Positions 47,346 through 52,746 of a DNA stretch of 53,223 nt are shown piece after piece. This DNA is from a virus (taxonomy: Duplodnaviria; Caudoviricetes). The notes beneath the pieces were generated by a model that saw only the letters and a list, made by a program, of their open reading frames with translations, was not told the origin of the DNA and ran no database searches. The position numbers and the translations under genes are program-made. The first letter of the stretch is position 1. Every line of letters starts with the position of its first letter. The DNA is taken from positions 1-53,223 of the IMG/VR virus record IMGVR_UViG_3300048550_000310. One strand, given 5' to 3'.

Positions 47346-48995
47346 TTATCTAAACTCCCACATATAGGACTTATCACCGTACTCCGCGACCTGCCATACG
47401 TCTCCCTGAGCATCTGCGAAGTATTCATCTTCCATCCCATCATCAATGAAACCAAAGGGTGCCATGTCTTGTTCTATGTTTTCTCTTTGATCATCGTAAA
47501 TGCGTTGACGAACATCATTGTCATGCATCTGTTTAAAGTATTCCTGCATTGCCATCCAAGCAAAGATAACAAGACACATAGCAAGGTCATCGTTACATCC
47601 GTCTTCTGCGGCAAATGATTGACCCTTGACAATGAATGTAGTCAGTTCTGCGATCGTATCGTAATCTGGAATGATTAATTTGTCCTCTTCAATGAGTGCC
47701 TTGAGGTTAGAACATCCAACTTGCTTCACAGCAGTAGACATCTTGACACCCAGTTGTGTCTTCTTACCAGAGAAACCCTGACCCAACTGTTGTCCTGCGC
47801 GACCGCGCATTGCTGCCATCAACAAATTCTCATACTCCAAATCAAACTGAATGATATCTGCAACCTGTCCACCGATATCATTCACTTCACATAAGATATA
47901 CGCATTATTATAGTTCTTTGCAACATCAATAATGACGTTGGGAAAGATAATAGGTTTGATTTCATTGTTTTTATATCTAGCAACCATCTCATATGGTACT
48001 GTCGTAGTATCCATTACACAGAATGCAGAATAATCTTGACTTGTACCACGCGCAACGTCAACCGTTATGATATAGTTGTGATCTGATTCAACACGTTTGT
48101 AAATAGCAAGTCCTTTATTTTGTGCAATTGGATCATGATATGGCATGACCCTTAGTTTGCTTGGACTAATTAGAGTATCAACAGATCCTAAGAACTCACA
48201 TTCAAATTCGACCTTGAATTGTGATTCAGAAGTATTTTTAATTGTTTGTTCTTTCCATGCAGCATCTCTACCGGGAACTGCAGACCAGTGAACCTCTGTT
48301 GGAATATATTCGTTCTTACTTCTTTCAGCATCATGCCAAAGTTTGTAAAACATATTCATCCCGTGTGGGGTAGAAATGATAATTACTTTGGTAGATTTAC
48401 CAGATGAAATAGTAGGATAAACAGAAGCAAAGAACTGGTCAGCGATATGATTCGGAACGAACGCGAATTCGTCCAGAAAAATGACATTAAAAGACATACC
48501 CCTGATGGCACTAGAAGAAGTAGATGCAGCCATGATTTTGCTTCCATTCTCCAGTTCCAGACTACCTCTGTTCCATTGGAGGATTCCTTGCTGGAGCCAT
48601 TTGGGGAGGTTTTCATAACTCAGTTGTAATCTTTGCAGCATCTCACGAGAAGTTGCTGCTTTGTTTGCTAGAATTGCGACATTAACATTCGCATTAAAAA
48701 GAACATACCACAACAGATAACTGGTAACGATAGTAGACTTACCAGACTGTCGCGGTAATTTTGCAATATTGAATCGATTTTCATGAAATTTGTCTACCAT
48801 CTCCTCTTGAAAATCATACATGTCAAAAGGAATCAAACCTTTATCAAGAGAAACAATTCTAATGTATGTTCTAATAAAATAAACAGGATTTTCAGAGCAC
48901 TTGATAATTTCCTCAATCTGTTCCGGAGTAAACTCTTGTTTTACATTAGCTTTAATTAGATTGGGATTACCAAGATATTGTTCAGCGTTAGTCAT
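47346..48995 (-). CDS. g17: Terminase large subunit gp17
   Basis: YLGNPNL, PRQSGKST, FLDEFAF, STPHG, DDLAM. Confidence 0.97.
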   Translation of the reverse strand: MTNAEQYLGNPNLIKANVKQEFTPEQIEEIIKCSENPVYFIRTYIRIVSLDKGLIPFDMYDFQEEMVDKFHENRFNIAKLPRQSGKSTIVTSYLLWYVLFNANVNVAILANKAATSREMLQRLQLSYENLPKWLQQGILQWNRGSLELENGSKIMAASTSSSAIRGMSFNVIFLDEFAFVPNHIADQFFASVYPTISSGKSTKVIIISTPHGMNMFYKLWHDAERSKNEYIPTEVHWSAVPGRDAAWKEQTIKNTSESQFKVEFECEFLGSVDTLISPSKLRVMPYHDPIAQNKGLAIYKRVESDHNYIITVDVARGTSQDYSAFCVMDTTTVPYEMVARYKNNEIKPIIFPNVIIDVAKNYNNAYILCEVNDIGGQVADIIQFDLEYENLLMAAMRGRAGQQLGQGFSGKKTQLGVKMSTAVKQVGCSNLKALIEEDKLIIPDYDTIAELTTFIVKGQSFAAEDGCNDDLAMCLVIFAWMAMQEYFKQMHDNDVRQRIYDDQRENIEQDMAPFGFIDDGMEDEYFADAQGDVWQVAEYGDKSYMWEFR

Positions 48996-49209
48996 GTTTT
49001 ACAAAGTGATTTTCAATTGCTTCAATACGCTCTTCGGCGTGTGCAATGATATCCAGTTGCTCTTGAATTGCACCAAGAACATCAGGATGTTCACCAATAC
49101 CTACAGGGTGGTGTAAATAGATTTCTACATTTGCTTTTGCTTTTTTGATATCACCTTCGGCATTAGCACGAAGTGCATCCAGCATATTCTTTCTAAGATC
49201 GCAACTCAT
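48988..49209 (-). CDS. Conserved hypothetical protein
   Basis: 73 aa; NVEIYL.HPVGIGEHPD. Confidence 0.75.
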   Translation of the reverse strand: MSCDLRKNMLDALRANAEGDIKKAKANVEIYLHHPVGIGEHPDVLGAIQEQLDIIAHAEERIEAIENHFVKHD

Positions 49210-49664
49210 ACTAATGTCCCCTTTTCTCTACGAATTTCTCTTAGTGCTTCAAGGTTCATATCTTTAGTGCCACCATCATATGCATGAGCATATCCTTCTT
49301 CGATCATTTGCTCGTTAAGCGACACGTCTCCGTCCCCAATGTAAAGCCAACCAAGAAGACGCCCATATTTACCGACGCCACCAACAAGTTCAGTCCTAAC
49401 AGACAACTCATCATCACCAGCGATAGTCGATTCCAGTTTTTCTTTGAGCCAGTTGGTTGCGTCGATTCCAAGAGCCTTCTCCTCTAAGTTTTTCGTTCTT
49501 TTTTCTGGCGTATCAACGCCTGCAACTCTAACTCTTTCTTTCTTGTATAAATCAAACCCAAGATCAATAGTGACATCAATAGTATCACCATCAAGGACAC
49601 GGTTGATCTCCGTCACTCGGAAGTTGTAGCAGCTCTTCCTGCTCGGTGGTGTCATTGCTCCCAT
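49206..49664 (-). CDS. Staphylococcal-nuclease-like (thermonuclease) protein
   Basis: RVLDGDTID, RVRVAGVDTPE, GKYGRLLG, NEQMIEEGYA. Confidence 0.85.
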   Translation of the reverse strand: MGAMTPPSRKSCYNFRVTEINRVLDGDTIDVTIDLGFDLYKKERVRVAGVDTPEKRTKNLEEKALGIDATNWLKEKLESTIAGDDELSVRTELVGGVGKYGRLLGWLYIGDGDVSLNEQMIEEGYAHAYDGGTKDMNLEALREIRREKGTLV

Positions 49665-49800
49665 CTTTTAACTCTGCAAATGCTTGTCTTAGTATGTATA
49701 CGACTACAAACAATGCACCTGCAACTGCAAGTATCACACAGATAATTACTGACCACACAGGGTCGTTAGCATTATCTAGAGGACGTAATAGTAAATTCAT
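49591..49800 (-). CDS. Small single-TM protein
   Basis: MNLLLRPLDNANDPVWSVIICVILAVAGALFVVVYIL...; ATGA-coupled. Confidence 0.7.
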   Translation of the reverse strand: MNLLLRPLDNANDPVWSVIICVILAVAGALFVVVYILRQAFAELKDGSNDTTEQEELLQLPSDGDQPCP

Positions 49801-50012
49801 AGTGCAATTTTCATCCAAGGTAGTATAGGAGGTATCACTCCAATGAGTCTAAGAAGACCCTCAGCAAAAAGTGCGAGAACAACCCAACCAACACACATAC
49901 TGATAATTCCAGCGTTACGATTATGCTTTCGTATGGCATCATCAATCATCTCCTGGCATTCTTCACGAGTGATACAGTGAGTTGGTTTAATTTGGTCCAT
50001 CCGATGTGTCAT
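49797..50012 (-). CDS. Small membrane protein
   Basis: ECQEMIDDAIRKHNRNA then hydrophobic GIISMCVGWVVLALFAEGLL; start placed at ATG 50012. Confidence 0.7.
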   Translation of the reverse strand: MTHRMDQIKPTHCITREECQEMIDDAIRKHNRNAGIISMCVGWVVLALFAEGLLRLIGVIPPILPWMKIAL

Positions 50013-50163
50013 GGTTTCGTATGAATGGTTCCCAGTGCTCCCAACCATATTTATGTATTGCCCACATTCCTATTACAGGAACAAAGACTAGACACCATGC
50101 CATGAGTCCTAATCCATATGGATTATTTAATACTGCTCCACAGAATCTAGCAAACTGTAACAT
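49987..50163 (-). CDS. Small membrane protein (58 aa), not in ORF track
   Basis: Manual translation MLQFARFCGAVLNNPYGLGLMAWCLVFVPVIGMWAIHKYGWEHWEPFIRNHDTSDGPN. Confidence 0.7.
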   Translation of the reverse strand: MLQFARFCGAVLNNPYGLGLMAWCLVFVPVIGMWAIHKYGWEHWEPFIRNHDTSDGPN

Positions 50164-50255
50164 TATTCAAAAAGAGATAAGAGGAAAAGAAACATTCCAA
50201 AGAGGCAAACAACCCCCGTTAAAAAGAATGGAAAGTATTCAACTGGGGTAAGCAT
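50163..50255 (-). CDS. 30-aa hydrophobic peptide, not in ORF track
   Basis: MLTPVEYFPFFLTGVVCLFGMFLFLLSLFE; stop overlaps next start (TAATG). Confidence 0.5.
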   Translation of the reverse strand: MLTPVEYFPFFLTGVVCLFGMFLFLLSLFE

Positions 50256-50337
50256 TACCTAGTCCCCATACAACAAATAGTGCTATGAAACTGAATATAA
50301 AAAATCCTGTTGCTCTTACGTTAGAAACTTTTTCCAT
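50239..50337 (-). CDS. ndhQ: NdhQ-like single-TM peptide (32 aa), not in ORF track
   Basis: MEKVSNVRATGFFIFSFIALFVVWGLGNAYPS with GAGG upstream; C-terminus resembles remembered NdhQ end (FIAGLIWWALHTAYA). Confidence 0.5.
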   Translation of the reverse strand: MEKVSNVRATGFFIFSFIALFVVWGLGNAYPS

Positions 50338-50468
50338 GGATCCTCATTGTGAAGGCAAGATTTGGGGTGTACCCAATTACTATTTACTTCTTCCAGCATC
50401 ATCTTGAGTTGCTTATTTTCGAGTTTCAACATATAGATCTCATGTCTTAACTTTTTAATCGGATTCAT
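50316..50468 (-). CDS. Small coiled-coil protein
   Basis: MNPIKKLRHEIYMLKLENKQLK...WVHPKSCLH; start moved to ATG 50468. Confidence 0.6.
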   Translation of the reverse strand: MNPIKKLRHEIYMLKLENKQLKMMLEEVNSNWVHPKSCLHNEDPWKKFLT

Positions 50469-50661
50469 AACGGTTCTTCCATAACTCCAGGAAATATCGA
50501 TCGACTTCGTATAAGTCAGAACGACTAGGTGCAATAGTATCTATGTCTTGAGCCCATGACATACATATATCTCGCATTTCTGGTGTTATACCCTGAGGTA
50601 AAAACATTCTACCAAATGATGACATGGCAAACGCAAATCGCATTCTAATGCGCTGTTCCAT
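50455..50661 (-). CDS. Conserved hypothetical protein
   Basis: MEQRIRMRFAFAMSSFGRMF...DLYEVDRYFLELWK; start moved to ATG 50661. Confidence 0.65.
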   Translation of the reverse strand: MEQRIRMRFAFAMSSFGRMFLPQGITPEMRDICMSWAQDIDTIAPSRSDLYEVDRYFLELWKNRYESD

Positions 50662-50776
50662 TTCCTGAGTAGGCGTCGGTTTCATAATAGTTATTCTCAC
50701 CTTTTCTGTACCCGAAATATGCGGTGGCACATAGAAACGGTAATGTTCCGAAAAGTAGGACATGTGCTAAAGTCAT
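50645..50776 (-). CDS. ndhP: NDH-1 small subunit NdhP (43 aa), not in ORF track
   Basis: MTLAHVLLFGTLPFLCATAYFGYRKGENNYYETDAYSGNGTAH: one TM then FG...YYETD.Y.GNG.AH C-terminus characteristic of NdhP; ATGA-coupled to gnd. Confidence 0.8.
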   Translation of the reverse strand: MTLAHVLLFGTLPFLCATAYFGYRKGENNYYETDAYSGNGTAH

Positions 50777-51810
50777 CTTACGTTGTGTCCTCCGAACATA
50801 TACCTCATACCATTCAAAATCTTGGACCCGAAAGCCGCGAGACCGCGTGAATCAAATCTTTGATAAAGGGCAGTAGTAATGACAGGAGCGGGTACACCCA
50901 AATCGACAGCGGCATGAACAGTCCAGCGACCCTCACCGGAGTCGGAAACTCCGCCAGTGAATCGTTCAAGTTCATGATCGCCCCGAAGTACATCAGCAGT
51001 AAGATCGAGAAGCCAACTGCCGACCACACTACCACGACGCCATAACTCAGCAACTTCAGCAGAGTCAATATCATAACAATAATCTTTCGGATTCTCCATT
51101 GGAGCAACCTCAGCATCGCCTTCTTTAATATAAGCTGACCCAACATTAGCTTCATGCAGGATATTAAAGCCTTCGGCGTAGGCTTGCATGATTCCATATT
51201 CGACTCCGTTATGAACCATCTTTACGAAATGACCTGCGCCAGGTCCACCACAATGCAACCAACCGTACTCAGCAGATGTTGCCCTGCTGTATGGATCTGT
51301 CCGTTCGGCACTTGAAATACCTGGTGCGAGTGACCTGAAAATGGGGGCACATACAGATACTGCTGTATTTGTACCACCAACCATAAGACAGTATCCGCGC
51401 TCCAAACCAAAAACTCCACCGCTAGTACCGCAATCAATAAATTGGATACCAAGTTTGGCCAACCTTTCTGCTCTCCTGCGAGAATCTTTAAAGTTGCTAT
51501 TGCCATGATCAATAATAATATCCCCGTCGCTAAGTAATGGTAGTAACTCATTGAGTGTGTCCTCTACTAATTCTGCAGGAATAACAAGTTGAAAAATTCC
51601 AGGACATTCTCCGGCAGAACCTCCACTACCATGTACTACTTGAACAAGGCTTTCCAGATCAGTGGTAACTCCACTAACATAACCTGCTTCATACGCTTCT
51701 TGAGCCTTTGCATAGTTTCTCCTGTAACCCCAGACTTCGATACCTTGTTTCATCATACGGCGAGACATACCCTCGCCCATTCTTCCCAATCCAATGATCC
51801 CAACTTTCAT
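50773..51810 (-). CDS. gnd: 6-phosphogluconate dehydrogenase (short, decarboxylating)
   Basis: GLGRMG, IIDHGNS, DCGTSGG, GHFVKMVHNGVEYG, DSGEGRW, FGGH. Confidence 0.95.
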   Translation of the reverse strand: MKVGIIGLGRMGEGMSRRMMKQGIEVWGYRRNYAKAQEAYEAGYVSGVTTDLESLVQVVHGSGGSAGECPGIFQLVIPAELVEDTLNELLPLLSDGDIIIDHGNSNFKDSRRRAERLAKLGIQFIDCGTSGGVFGLERGYCLMVGGTNTAVSVCAPIFRSLAPGISSAERTDPYSRATSAEYGWLHCGGPGAGHFVKMVHNGVEYGIMQAYAEGFNILHEANVGSAYIKEGDAEVAPMENPKDYCYDIDSAEVAELWRRGSVVGSWLLDLTADVLRGDHELERFTGGVSDSGEGRWTVHAAVDLGVPAPVITTALYQRFDSRGLAAFGSKILNGMRYMFGGHNVR

Positions 51811-51813
51811 AAT

Positions 51814-51987
51814 TTAACACGCAAATGGTCTTGCCGATTGACGGCGATGTTTTAGTTCTGATGCAAGTTCGCCAAGTTCTGTGTAGATCGCATCCCCGAC
51901 CATATAATGTCCTTGACGATGCTCAACACATTCTATGATTTTGTCATAGTCTTGCTGCGAAAAGTCGGGGAAAAATTTTTTCATCAT
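51814..51987 (-). CDS. Small hypothetical protein (57 aa), not in ORF track
   Basis: Manual translation MMKKFFPDFSQQDYDKIIECVEHRQGHYMVGDAIYTELGELASELKHRRQSARPFAC; fills the petE-gnd gap. Confidence 0.6.
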   Translation of the reverse strand: MMKKFFPDFSQQDYDKIIECVEHRQGHYMVGDAIYTELGELASELKHRRQSARPFAC

Positions 51988-52014
51988 TTGATTAAATCCA
52001 TTGACTTATGTATC

Positions 52015-52338
52015 TCACTCCACATGTACAACGCCAGTCATACCTGCACCCTGATGAGGACCACAAAAGAAATTATAGTCACCTACGTCAGCAAATACAA
52101 CGTCTTGTGTTTCGCCAGGAGCAAACAGTAGTGCTTCTCTAGAAAGATCTGCACGACCTTCTACAATGATATTATGAGGAGGTAGTGCTTCATTGACAAA
52201 ATGAACTGTGTCACCTGCAGAGATTGTAATCTCATTCGGTTCAAATACTAGGTTGCCACCATGACCCATTGAGACATCAACTGCCCATGCAGGTAGAGCG
52301 ATGAAAAATGAAGCAATGAAAGCAATTAGAATTCTCAT
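52015..52338 (-). CDS. petE: Plastocyanin
   Basis: Signal peptide ending AWA; copper ligands PHN...C.PHQGAGM. Confidence 0.95.
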   Translation of the reverse strand: MRILIAFIASFFIALPAWAVDVSMGHGGNLVFEPNEITISAGDTVHFVNEALPPHNIIVEGRADLSREALLFAPGETQDVVFADVGDYNFFCGPHQGAGMTGVVHVE

Positions 52339-52713: not shown

Positions 52714-52746
52714 TATTTATTGTACCATACTGATACAATTTGTCAA
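52714..52746 (-). promoter_or_regulatory. Nested sigma70 and late promoter driving the petE-gnd cluster
   Basis: TTGACA-N16-TACAAT (with TGn extension) overlapping ATAAATA at 52714-52720. Confidence 0.65.

Follow-up and report, generated by a model that had tools for sequence, protein, structure and literature searches.

A putative viral NdhQ gene close to an NdhP homologue in the auxiliary gene block of a cyanomyovirus

The cyanobacterial complex NDH-1L, the form with NdhD1 and NdhF1, serves cyclic electron flow and respiration. In the available portion of the structural work on it, NdhP and NdhQ are placed at the distal membrane arm, where they sandwich NdhD from opposite sides; each makes contact with NdhD, NdhF, interfacial lipids and carotenoids, and loss of either disassembles NDH-1L (Pan 2020, PMC6992706). 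Among phages, ndhP is called uncommon and known only from P-TIM68 in the accessible text of a 2025 paper (PMC12801897), and the same text, as far as available, has it in S-SCSM2R too, which agrees with the remark in an earlier note on the present DNA that phage ndhP had been noted before. We analysed IMG/VR record IMGVR_UViG_3300048550_000310; the window is this whole virus record, 53,223 bases long with a completeness rating of 29%. Two very short open reading frames (ORFs) on its minus strand are at issue. One, of 43 residues, is almost certainly a homologue of cyanobacterial NdhP, as judged from profile searches; the other, of 32 residues, is very probably homologous to NdhQ. The earlier note had proposed both identities and a common role in favour of NDH-1L, by which electrons would be channelled to ATP formation.

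The 43-residue ORF as NdhP

The 43-residue peptide ends YYETDAYSGNGTAH, and T. elongatus NdhP, in the alignment to the PDB chain, ends FYDTDQYHGNGSAH. The endings that the earlier note had given for T. elongatus NdhP and NdhQ are correct, being seen in this alignment and in the Thermosynechococcus NdhQ locus, respectively. Searched as a single sequence, the peptide had the solved Thermosynechococcus NdhP as its top PDB match (6khi_P, E-value 2.6e-4), and profile A6, built from 11 phage copies, matched the same chain at E 2.8e-9. Applied to five picocyanobacterial genomes, A6 gave exactly one full-length match in each (5/5), with E from 1.6e-16 to 6e-14. The peptide also has the form of the subunit: one helix, a length of about 40–45 residues and the C-terminal end Y-x-[TS]-D-x-Y-x-G-N-G-[ST]-A-H, within which G-N-G-T-A-H is invariant among the 11 phage sequences. 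The proposed ndhP identity thus holds, as does the proposed coupling to gnd, the start ATG of the 43-residue ORF sharing the TGA of the gnd stop (ATGA).

By tblastn the peptide was found in 395 GenBank phage records, and 394 of these matches span 80% or more of the query; its usual neighbours there are gnd or zwf. None of the 60 matches listed (0/60) bears the name NdhP; the labels are those of hypothetical proteins or of neighbouring genes (gnd, zwf, ferredoxin), or there are none. In S-MbCM7 the gene is annotated as a 'hypothetical protein' of cluster T4-GC_248, and in Syn1 it is unannotated, the sole annotation being a longer ORF in another frame that overlaps its place. Putative ndhP is, on these matches, common among phages and unnamed, contrary to the published 'uncommon'. 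One IMG/VR relative, L031, has two tandem ndhP-like segments (1817-2133), the first running 17 residues beyond GNGTAH and the second truncated after about 30 residues.

The 32-residue ORF and its relation to NdhQ

The peptide encoded by the 32-residue ORF starts with a short polar segment, continues as a single transmembrane helix and closes with the motif WGLGNAYPS (it ends FIALFVVWGLGNAYPS); GAGGA lies 3 nucleotides ahead of the ATG. Weak tblastn matches proved syntenic: in ACG-2014f and S-MbCM7 they follow ndhP at a distance of a few hundred bases. Small ORFs at such places encode one hydrophobic helix and end W-[GS]-L-x-[NH]-A-Y-P. A pattern made from five phage peptides retrieved 343 IMG/VR stretches; tblastn confirmed 187 of them, and the analysis was made on 80. 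In all of these (80/80) the ORF is intact, 29–39 residues long with identity down to below 50%, and the helix is open and hydrophobic throughout. Diversity at codon positions 1, 2 and 3 was 0.389, 0.223 and 0.537, that is 3>1>2 (42 unique nucleotide sequences), and the median ratio of non-synonymous to synonymous change (dN/dS) was 0.346 over 191 pairs. Each of the five alternative frames has stops in between 29 and all 42 of the unique sequences, although, since the loci had been selected by a motif in the ndhQ-like frame, this test is partly ascertained and favours that frame somewhat. By these measures the 32-residue ORF is a conserved protein-coding gene.

The gene had been called 'hidden', and aptly so. 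Among about 15 billion predicted proteins there is no exact copy of the window's peptide, nor of those of S-MbCM7 and one IMG/VR member, and no family library matches the 32-residue peptide. GenBank isolates with ndhQ-like matches include S-MbCM7, ACG-2014f/e/i/j, S-CAM4, S-CAM9, S-RIM12, Sf-CH3, DSL-LC03 and S-SRM01; in the rows inspected the place of the gene is unannotated, or only flanking hypothetical proteins cover it. In two relatives, P0060 and P0090, the called product is an upstream ORF (phrog_2352-like and phrog_593-like, respectively) fused in frame with the ndhQ-like peptide; for some relatives, then, databases contain the small gene solely as the end of a longer predicted protein.

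The path to NdhQ leads through the hosts. A phage-only pattern found three loci in a genome collection, and the two inspected are chromosomal, in a Prochlorococcus single-cell genome and in a Synechococcaceae metagenome-assembled genome. In both, a small ORF lies between thiE-like and ribF-like genes. The host peptides end FIVWGLGNAYP and the window's ends FVVWGLGNAYPS; over query residues 21-32 the latter shares 11 of 12 C-terminal residues (92%) with a Prochlorococcus peptide. Depositors, independently of the present searches, have given the name 'NADH dehydrogenase subunit NdhQ' to this host peptide in Synechococcus PROS-9-1, SYN20 and MVIR-18-1 and in Prochlorococcus marinus (UniRef).

The profiles used include A2 (phage and host peptides), A3 (17 classical NdhQ), A4 (36 phage sequences) and A5 (10 picocyanobacterial NdhQ). 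Among 301 genomes sampled across the cyanobacterial phylum, A2 matched 130 (E up to 0.1). The best 30 of its loci are all short open frames, 9 of the picocyanobacterial type and 21 of the form MSDLNRGIMKFDGAD...W-A-L-x-x-A-Y, and two of these 21 are Thermosynechococcus loci identical to the solved NdhQ chains. A3, which matches the PDB chain 6khi_Q at E 4.7e-27, yielded a single candidate over the six frames of the window, namely the 32-residue ORF (E 0.0014). In 5/5 picocyanobacterial genomes its best match was the locus of the phage-like peptide (E 1.4e-7 to 0.0115), the same locus that A2 had found. With the phage-only profiles A1 and A4, NdhQ came first among 177,635 PDB sequences (E 0.01), and the top three PDB matches of the picocyanobacterial profile were all NdhQ (best E 3.2e-4). 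Profile–profile comparison with hhalign gave the following probabilities and E-values.

Phage against classical NdhQ: 96.5%, E 7.5e-10
Phage against picocyanobacterial: 98.3%, E 2.4e-14
Picocyanobacterial against classical: 97.3%, E 2.1e-11

As a control, the phage NdhQ-like profile compared with the phage NdhP profile gave 0.5%. A phage-only profile run against 1.84 billion representatives matched 51 proteins at E of 1e-3 or below, all at the C-terminal end of short proteins; the 20 examined comprise 13 that resemble picocyanobacterial NdhQ and 7 that resemble the phage peptides.

The W, L, A and Y of the C-terminal motif are invariant in the 36 phage and 10 picocyanobacterial sequences. In the 17 classical NdhQ, which share the C-terminal register of the phage peptides, W, A and Y are invariant and L is present in at least 90%. 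The 32-residue peptide has several of the features expected of an NdhQ: small size, one transmembrane helix, W-[AG]-L-x-x-A-Y near the end, profile similarity, and orthology of its nearest host relatives. Those nearest relatives, by sequence, are the NdhQ peptides of marine picocyanobacteria, and through them the phage peptide is linked to the solved Thermosynechococcus NdhQ. The 'ndhQ-like' label of the earlier note is therefore borne out by A3 in the window, by hhalign and by the depositors' naming of the host homologues. The hidden Markov models that the note had proposed to run on both peptides gave significant matches when used as profiles, for the 32-residue peptide as well. The note knew of no phage ndhQ, and the searchable literature, which excludes subscription papers, likewise contains no report of a viral one; NdhQ appears there only in reference titles or in a host context. 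In one marine Synechococcus genome the profiles gave a further, weak NdhQ-like match (G227:C1:1654640-1654717, minus strand; a 42-residue frame; E 0.011 with the phage and host profile, 0.0125 with the classical one), which may be a paralogue or a chance match.

The gene block and its small overlapping ORFs

The window represents part of a T4-like cyanomyovirus genome. Its region 50100-52400 matches 266 GenBank phage records, every one a cyanophage, the best being S-RIM44 and Syn1 (about 79.5% identity over 67% of the query). Nearly all large ORFs of the window are on the minus strand, as are, where the earlier note had put them, petE, gnd and the 43- and 32-residue ORFs. The auxiliary genes form a co-directional, tightly packed block running from petE through the 57-residue ORF, gnd, ndhP, two further ORFs and the ndhQ-like gene to more small membrane ORFs, with the terminase and structural genes downstream. 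The block lies just upstream of a 549-residue terminase-like ORF (47346..48995), as judged by eye from the ORFs rather than from family matches. Its members, in order along the minus strand, are:

52015..52338, minus strand: petE, plastocyanin, 107 residues (Pfam PF00127 Copper-bind 3.3e-20; TIGR02656 89.9 bits, cut-off 87.85; phrog_515 1.9e-59)
51814..51987, minus strand: 57-residue ORF, function unassigned (phrog_2064 2.3e-24)
50773..51810, minus strand: gnd, 6-phosphogluconate dehydrogenase, 345 residues (NF007161 4e-112; TIGR00872 332 bits; phrog_1319 8.4e-182)
50645..50776, minus strand: putative ndhP homologue, 43 residues (PDB NdhP 6khi_P; phrog_2173 matched over 1-43 of 43)
50455..50763, minus strand: phrog_593 ORF (T4-GC_1021), longest reading 102 residues (phrog_593 1.3e-45)
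50316..50534, minus strand: phrog_2352 ORF (phrog_2352 7.6e-11, residues 23-69)
50239..50337, minus strand: ndhQ-like micro-gene, 32 residues (NdhQ profile matches; conserved ORF)
50163..50255, minus strand: 30-residue single-helix ORF (conserved in 6 sequences, alignment A8)
49987..50163, minus strand: 58-residue ORF, predicted membrane protein (phrog_1184)

From gnd to the 58-residue ORF, seven successive genes have overlapping stop and start codons each time, which fits one translationally coupled unit; petE and the 57-residue ORF are separated from their next genes by gaps of 27 and 3 nucleotides. What the earlier note called an operon is thus seen as a layout of overlapping and close-set genes, while operon status itself is read from that layout. 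A scan gave 7 promoter-like sites (10.2 expected) and 6 terminator-like sites (2.3 expected), none convincing; a TTGACA-16-TACAAT site lies at 52746..52719 on the minus strand, upstream of a 97-residue ORF that precedes petE. Of the 20 public sequencing runs listed for the window, 6 are RNA, each with just 7–12% of the sampled words. Contigs of four RNA runs cover gnd and those of two cover the ndhP region, although contigs cannot demonstrate transcription; one of the contigs over the ndhP region is 151 nucleotides long with 13 differences and so stems from a relative. The ndhQ-like ORF is left uncovered by the contigs of the four runs, and an uncovered part proves nothing.

Two starts within the block are best placed downstream of the longest reading. 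In its 102-residue reading the phrog_593 ORF overlaps ndhP by 119 nucleotides in another frame (50645-50763). Its start is likely the ATG at 50685 (MKPTPTQ...), the overlap then being 41 nucleotides: in S-MbCM7 a 77-residue form is annotated together with ndhP, the two overlapping by 41 nucleotides, and ACG-2014f and DSL-LC03 do not conserve the N-terminal extension. The annotation of Syn1 has the long ORF alone. In the overlap with ndhP, diversity is low at all codon positions (0.088, 0.055 and 0.081; 12 unique related sequences). The phrog_2352 match begins at residue 23, which makes the ATG at 50468 the likely start of that ORF; its end overlaps the ndhQ-like start by 22 nucleotides.

The ndhQ-like gene in turn overlaps the 30-residue ORF (MLTPVEYFPFF...) by 17 nucleotides, the ATG of the latter lying inside the N-A codons of the ndhQ-like motif and its stop overlapping the start of the 58-residue ORF. 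This arrangement recurs: in 57 of the 80 loci the ATG of the next gene is within the N/H-A codons (AATGC / CATGC) of the NAYP motif, 16 nucleotides before the ORF end, and at least three downstream families (30-residue, 58-residue-like and phrog_593-like) start at that same position. The embedded start suggests coupled translation or a recurrent gene-shuffling junction. The 30-residue ORF is unannotated and is conserved in S-MbCM7 and four IMG/VR loci. We also considered it as another hidden host subunit, but its family found nothing in PDB up to E 10 and matched none of 5 picocyanobacterial genomes meaningfully (best E 0.0585, in one). It appears to be phage-specific.

Further along the minus strand (49591-50163) there is a run of small predicted membrane ORFs of 58 (phrog_1184), 83 (phrog_1096) and 75 residues, followed by a 152-residue ORF (49206..49664) that matches T4-GC_228 of Syn1 and S-MbCM7, for which Syn1 notes PF00565. 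Across the 80 IMG/VR loci the ndhQ-like gene always shares its strand with its neighbours, which vary from locus to locus; the commonest is the phrog_1096 family (54/80), the phrog_593 family being near it in 35/80 and gnd in 22/80.

Proposed NDH-1L stabilization, other readings and known systems

In the PDB match lists, every entry with NdhP or NdhQ chains also contains the NdhD named 'chain 4 1'; 6tjv, which we take to be the CO2-uptake form, has neither. Together with the positions of the two subunits, the effects of their deletion and the role of NDH-1L, this co-occurrence leads us to infer that the phage peptides stand in for the host subunits or add to them. Both peptides would be made during infection and would insert into the thylakoid membrane, where phage NdhP and NdhQ would sit beside NdhD1 and NdhF1 in place of their host counterparts. 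NDH-1L would then be kept assembled, or its level raised, after host gene expression stops, and with plastocyanin carrying electrons to photosystem I and 6-phosphogluconate dehydrogenase making NADPH in the pentose phosphate pathway, ATP and reducing power for phage replication would be favoured. The stabilizing role that the earlier note gave to NdhP and NdhQ, in respiration and cyclic flow, agrees with the available portion of Pan 2020 (PMC6992706). Upkeep of NDH-1L by phage peptides would also fit the picture given in a review, as far as its text was available, that infection enhances cyclic electron flow, with phage talC, zwf and gnd sending carbon into the pentose phosphate pathway (PMC6359870).

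We compared this proposal with a complex prediction. The NdhD1 of a marine Synechococcus was recognised from the NdhF-like gene next to it and from its PDB similarity, 8.1e-239 to 'chain 4 1' against 7.4e-87 to 6tjv_D, and was predicted, aligned with 20 orthologues, together with phage NdhP and phage NdhQ and alongside three controls. The complex scored 0.47 (runs 0.47, 0.53 and 0.44), against 0.00 for the best control; the partners had a predicted local distance difference test score (pLDDT) of at least 74, and no less than 94% of contacts were common to the runs. The calibration has 58 passes among 80 solved complexes and 2 among 110 mismatched pairs; 7 of the passing solved complexes and both passing mismatches score 0.60 or less, and a pass in that range is wrong in most cases, except where the guess was already a likely one. 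A like complex has already been solved, so the pass may reflect only likeness to it. The multimer check that the earlier note had proposed thus speaks weakly for an assembly with NdhD1, and may do so merely by mirroring the solved structure.

On this analysis we regard the chances for and against the stabilizing mechanism as evenly balanced; the full explanation, with identity and mechanism weighed jointly, we consider fairly probable. A bolder form of it is rather less likely than not: viral NdhQ, overlooked in many cyanomyoviruses, would in the subset that also has NdhP complete a phage-made clamp on both sides of NdhD1, locking the NdhD1/NdhF1 module to the NDH-1 core and shifting the NDH-1 pool to the L form over the CO2-uptake forms during the shutdown of carbon fixation, and the shortened NdhQ would be the minimal binding part.

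A number of observations weigh against the assignment of the 32-residue peptide and its pairing with NdhP. NdhQ homology rests on profiles over 23–28 aligned, mostly hydrophobic columns, and the 17 classical NdhQ of A3 were themselves retrieved with a profile containing phage sequences. HMMER flags the PDB NdhQ matches of the phage profiles as uncertain ('?'; bias 5.0–5.8 bits at E 0.01). The single 32-residue sequence finds nothing in PDB, as is the case for one single host peptide, and has no match in Pfam, NCBIfam or PHROGs; three host peptides have no NCBIfam match either, which says little, since no model matched. In tblastn against GenBank phages the peptide gives E 0.1 or worse, and 34 of the 99 records are chance matches to mycobacteriophage proteases; for such short hydrophobic queries, however, tblastn is unreliable, a second family member finding 72 records and a third none. 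The N-terminal D-x-NRGIMKF-x-GAD, invariant in the 17 classical NdhQ, is missing from all 36 phage sequences, and the window's copy has serine where every classical and picocyanobacterial sequence has a helix glycine. The N-terminal segment is also largely gone in the 10 picocyanobacterial NdhQ, where just a (F)D(G/S) remnant aligns; being mostly lost from the hosts' own NdhQ, it is no defining trait of the marine branch. The phage copy is thus, by its sequence, a minimal NdhQ, with the helix and the C-terminal W-G-L-x-N-A-Y-P kept and the N-terminal segment lost. Part of the nucleotide conservation at the motif could serve the translation of the neighbour, whose ATG lies inside it. As to pairing, ndhP is near the ndhQ-like gene in 25 of the 80 loci (within 2.5-kb flanks), and at E up to 1 none of the five long ndhQ-bearing virus records (5/5) has an ndhP match, two of them, G304 (247,112 bases) and G305 (192,732 bases, with terminal repeats), being rated complete; the two genes are therefore often linked and not an obligate pair. 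The GenBank records counted for ndhP, 395, compare with 65 to 72 for ndhQ-like matches.

Some of these points would fit a decoy. Both peptides would still be NdhP and NdhQ homologues, and the short NdhQ would bind NdhD1/NdhF1 or an assembly intermediate so as to weaken, block or re-target the complex, for example by tilting the balance of NDH-1 forms to the harm of the host. The absence of the segment that classical NdhQ keeps invariant, the serine in the helix, and the long records with the ndhQ-like gene and no ndhP, in which the peptide must have some effect alone, could all be read in this way. However, the hosts' own picocyanobacterial NdhQ lacks most of the same segment, so that the shortening is not phage-specific; purifying selection keeps the host's C-terminal motif; and the neighbours petE and gnd are known as supportive auxiliary genes, according to the accessible part of the review (PMC6359870). 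We consider such interference unlikely.

The peptide might, alternatively, derive from NdhQ and now act outside NDH-1, as a partner of the phage 30-, 58-, 83- and 75-residue membrane proteins or on another thylakoid complex. Its gene does lie within a run of small phage membrane ORFs, and the 83-residue family (phrog_1096) is near it about twice as often as ndhP is (54 against 25 of 80 loci). But the same parts, helix and C-terminal motif, are conserved in phage and host, the complex prediction sets the peptide against NdhD1 (weakly supported, with controls scoring zero), and the 30-residue neighbour, having no host counterpart, gives no hint of a common host target. A role away from NDH-1 is, in our view, quite unlikely.

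It is very improbable that the ORF is a non-functional upstream frame whose conserved 3′ end merely supplies the ribosome-binding region and start of the downstream gene. Such a frame would account for the start shared by at least three downstream families in 57/80 loci, and TGGGG and AGG in the W-G-L-G codons do resemble a Shine-Dalgarno site; it would not account for a whole helix that stays open and hydrophobic in 80/80 loci to below 50% identity, for a dN/dS of about 0.35, or for the same motif in host chromosomes, where the adjacent large ribF-like ORF is on the opposite strand. Finally, a chance likeness of two short hydrophobic helices, for which the PDB E-values of just 0.01 with their composition-bias warning and the failing single-sequence searches might speak, is scarcely credible given that NdhQ tops 177,635 PDB sequences for three independent profiles, that the match is in end-to-end register at the C-terminus with 11/12 residues shared with Prochlorococcus, that controls with two other single-helix families give nothing, and that A3 and the phage-containing A2 converge on one locus in each of 5 picocyanobacterial genomes.

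Phage ndhP is a gene of an already known kind, and the viral ndhQ-like gene is new and of the same kind. A viral NdhQ would be the second NDH-1L-specific subunit among cyanophage auxiliary genes. With 187 confirmed IMG/VR stretches and dozens of GenBank isolates, the ndhQ-like gene is widespread yet unseen, as gene callers skip it, and its minimal viral form would reveal which part of NdhQ selection retains. The question opened is whether control of NDH-1L assembly matters to phage energy supply; isolates with both genes exist, such as S-MbCM7 (ACG-2014h) on Synechococcus WH7803, and so do Synechocystis ndhP and ndhQ deletion mutants.

Among known systems, the NdhQ of Thermosynechococcus (PDB 6KHI/6L7O/6HUM, chain Q) and of Synechocystis resembles the phage peptide in being a small, single-helix protein ending W-x-L-x-x-A-Y. 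In contrast to this classical form, the phage peptide has 32 residues instead of 45, is without D-x-NRGIMKF-x-GAD, has serine for the helix glycine in the window's copy, and is encoded by a virus. Closer still is the picocyanobacterial NdhQ (PROS-9-1, SYN20, MVIR-18-1; the Prochlorococcus marinus MIT 9303 type), with a near-identical C-terminus (F-[IV]-V-W-G-L-G-N-A-Y-P), one helix and a short N-terminus, which in Prochlorococcus starts ME(K/N). It differs in having 37–39 residues, an LLGGIG helix motif and a chromosomal place between thiE-like and ribF-like genes, whereas the phage form is 5–7 residues shorter and has I-F-S-F-I-A in the helix. The ndhP of P-TIM68 and S-SCSM2R, as described in the available text (PMC12801897), is the same kind of gene as the window's 43-residue one, coding for an NDH-1L-specific single-helix subunit; the window's copy adjoins gnd. 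More broadly, cyanophage psbA, psbD, hli, psaA-K, ndhI and ndhD, in the accessible parts of the sources (PMC12801897, PMC10452541), follow the same logic of a phage copy of a host electron-transport subunit. Compared with psbA-type genes, the ndhQ-like gene is far smaller, falls under the usual gene-calling cut-off, and would encode a stabilizing accessory subunit rather than a catalytic or pigment-binding one.

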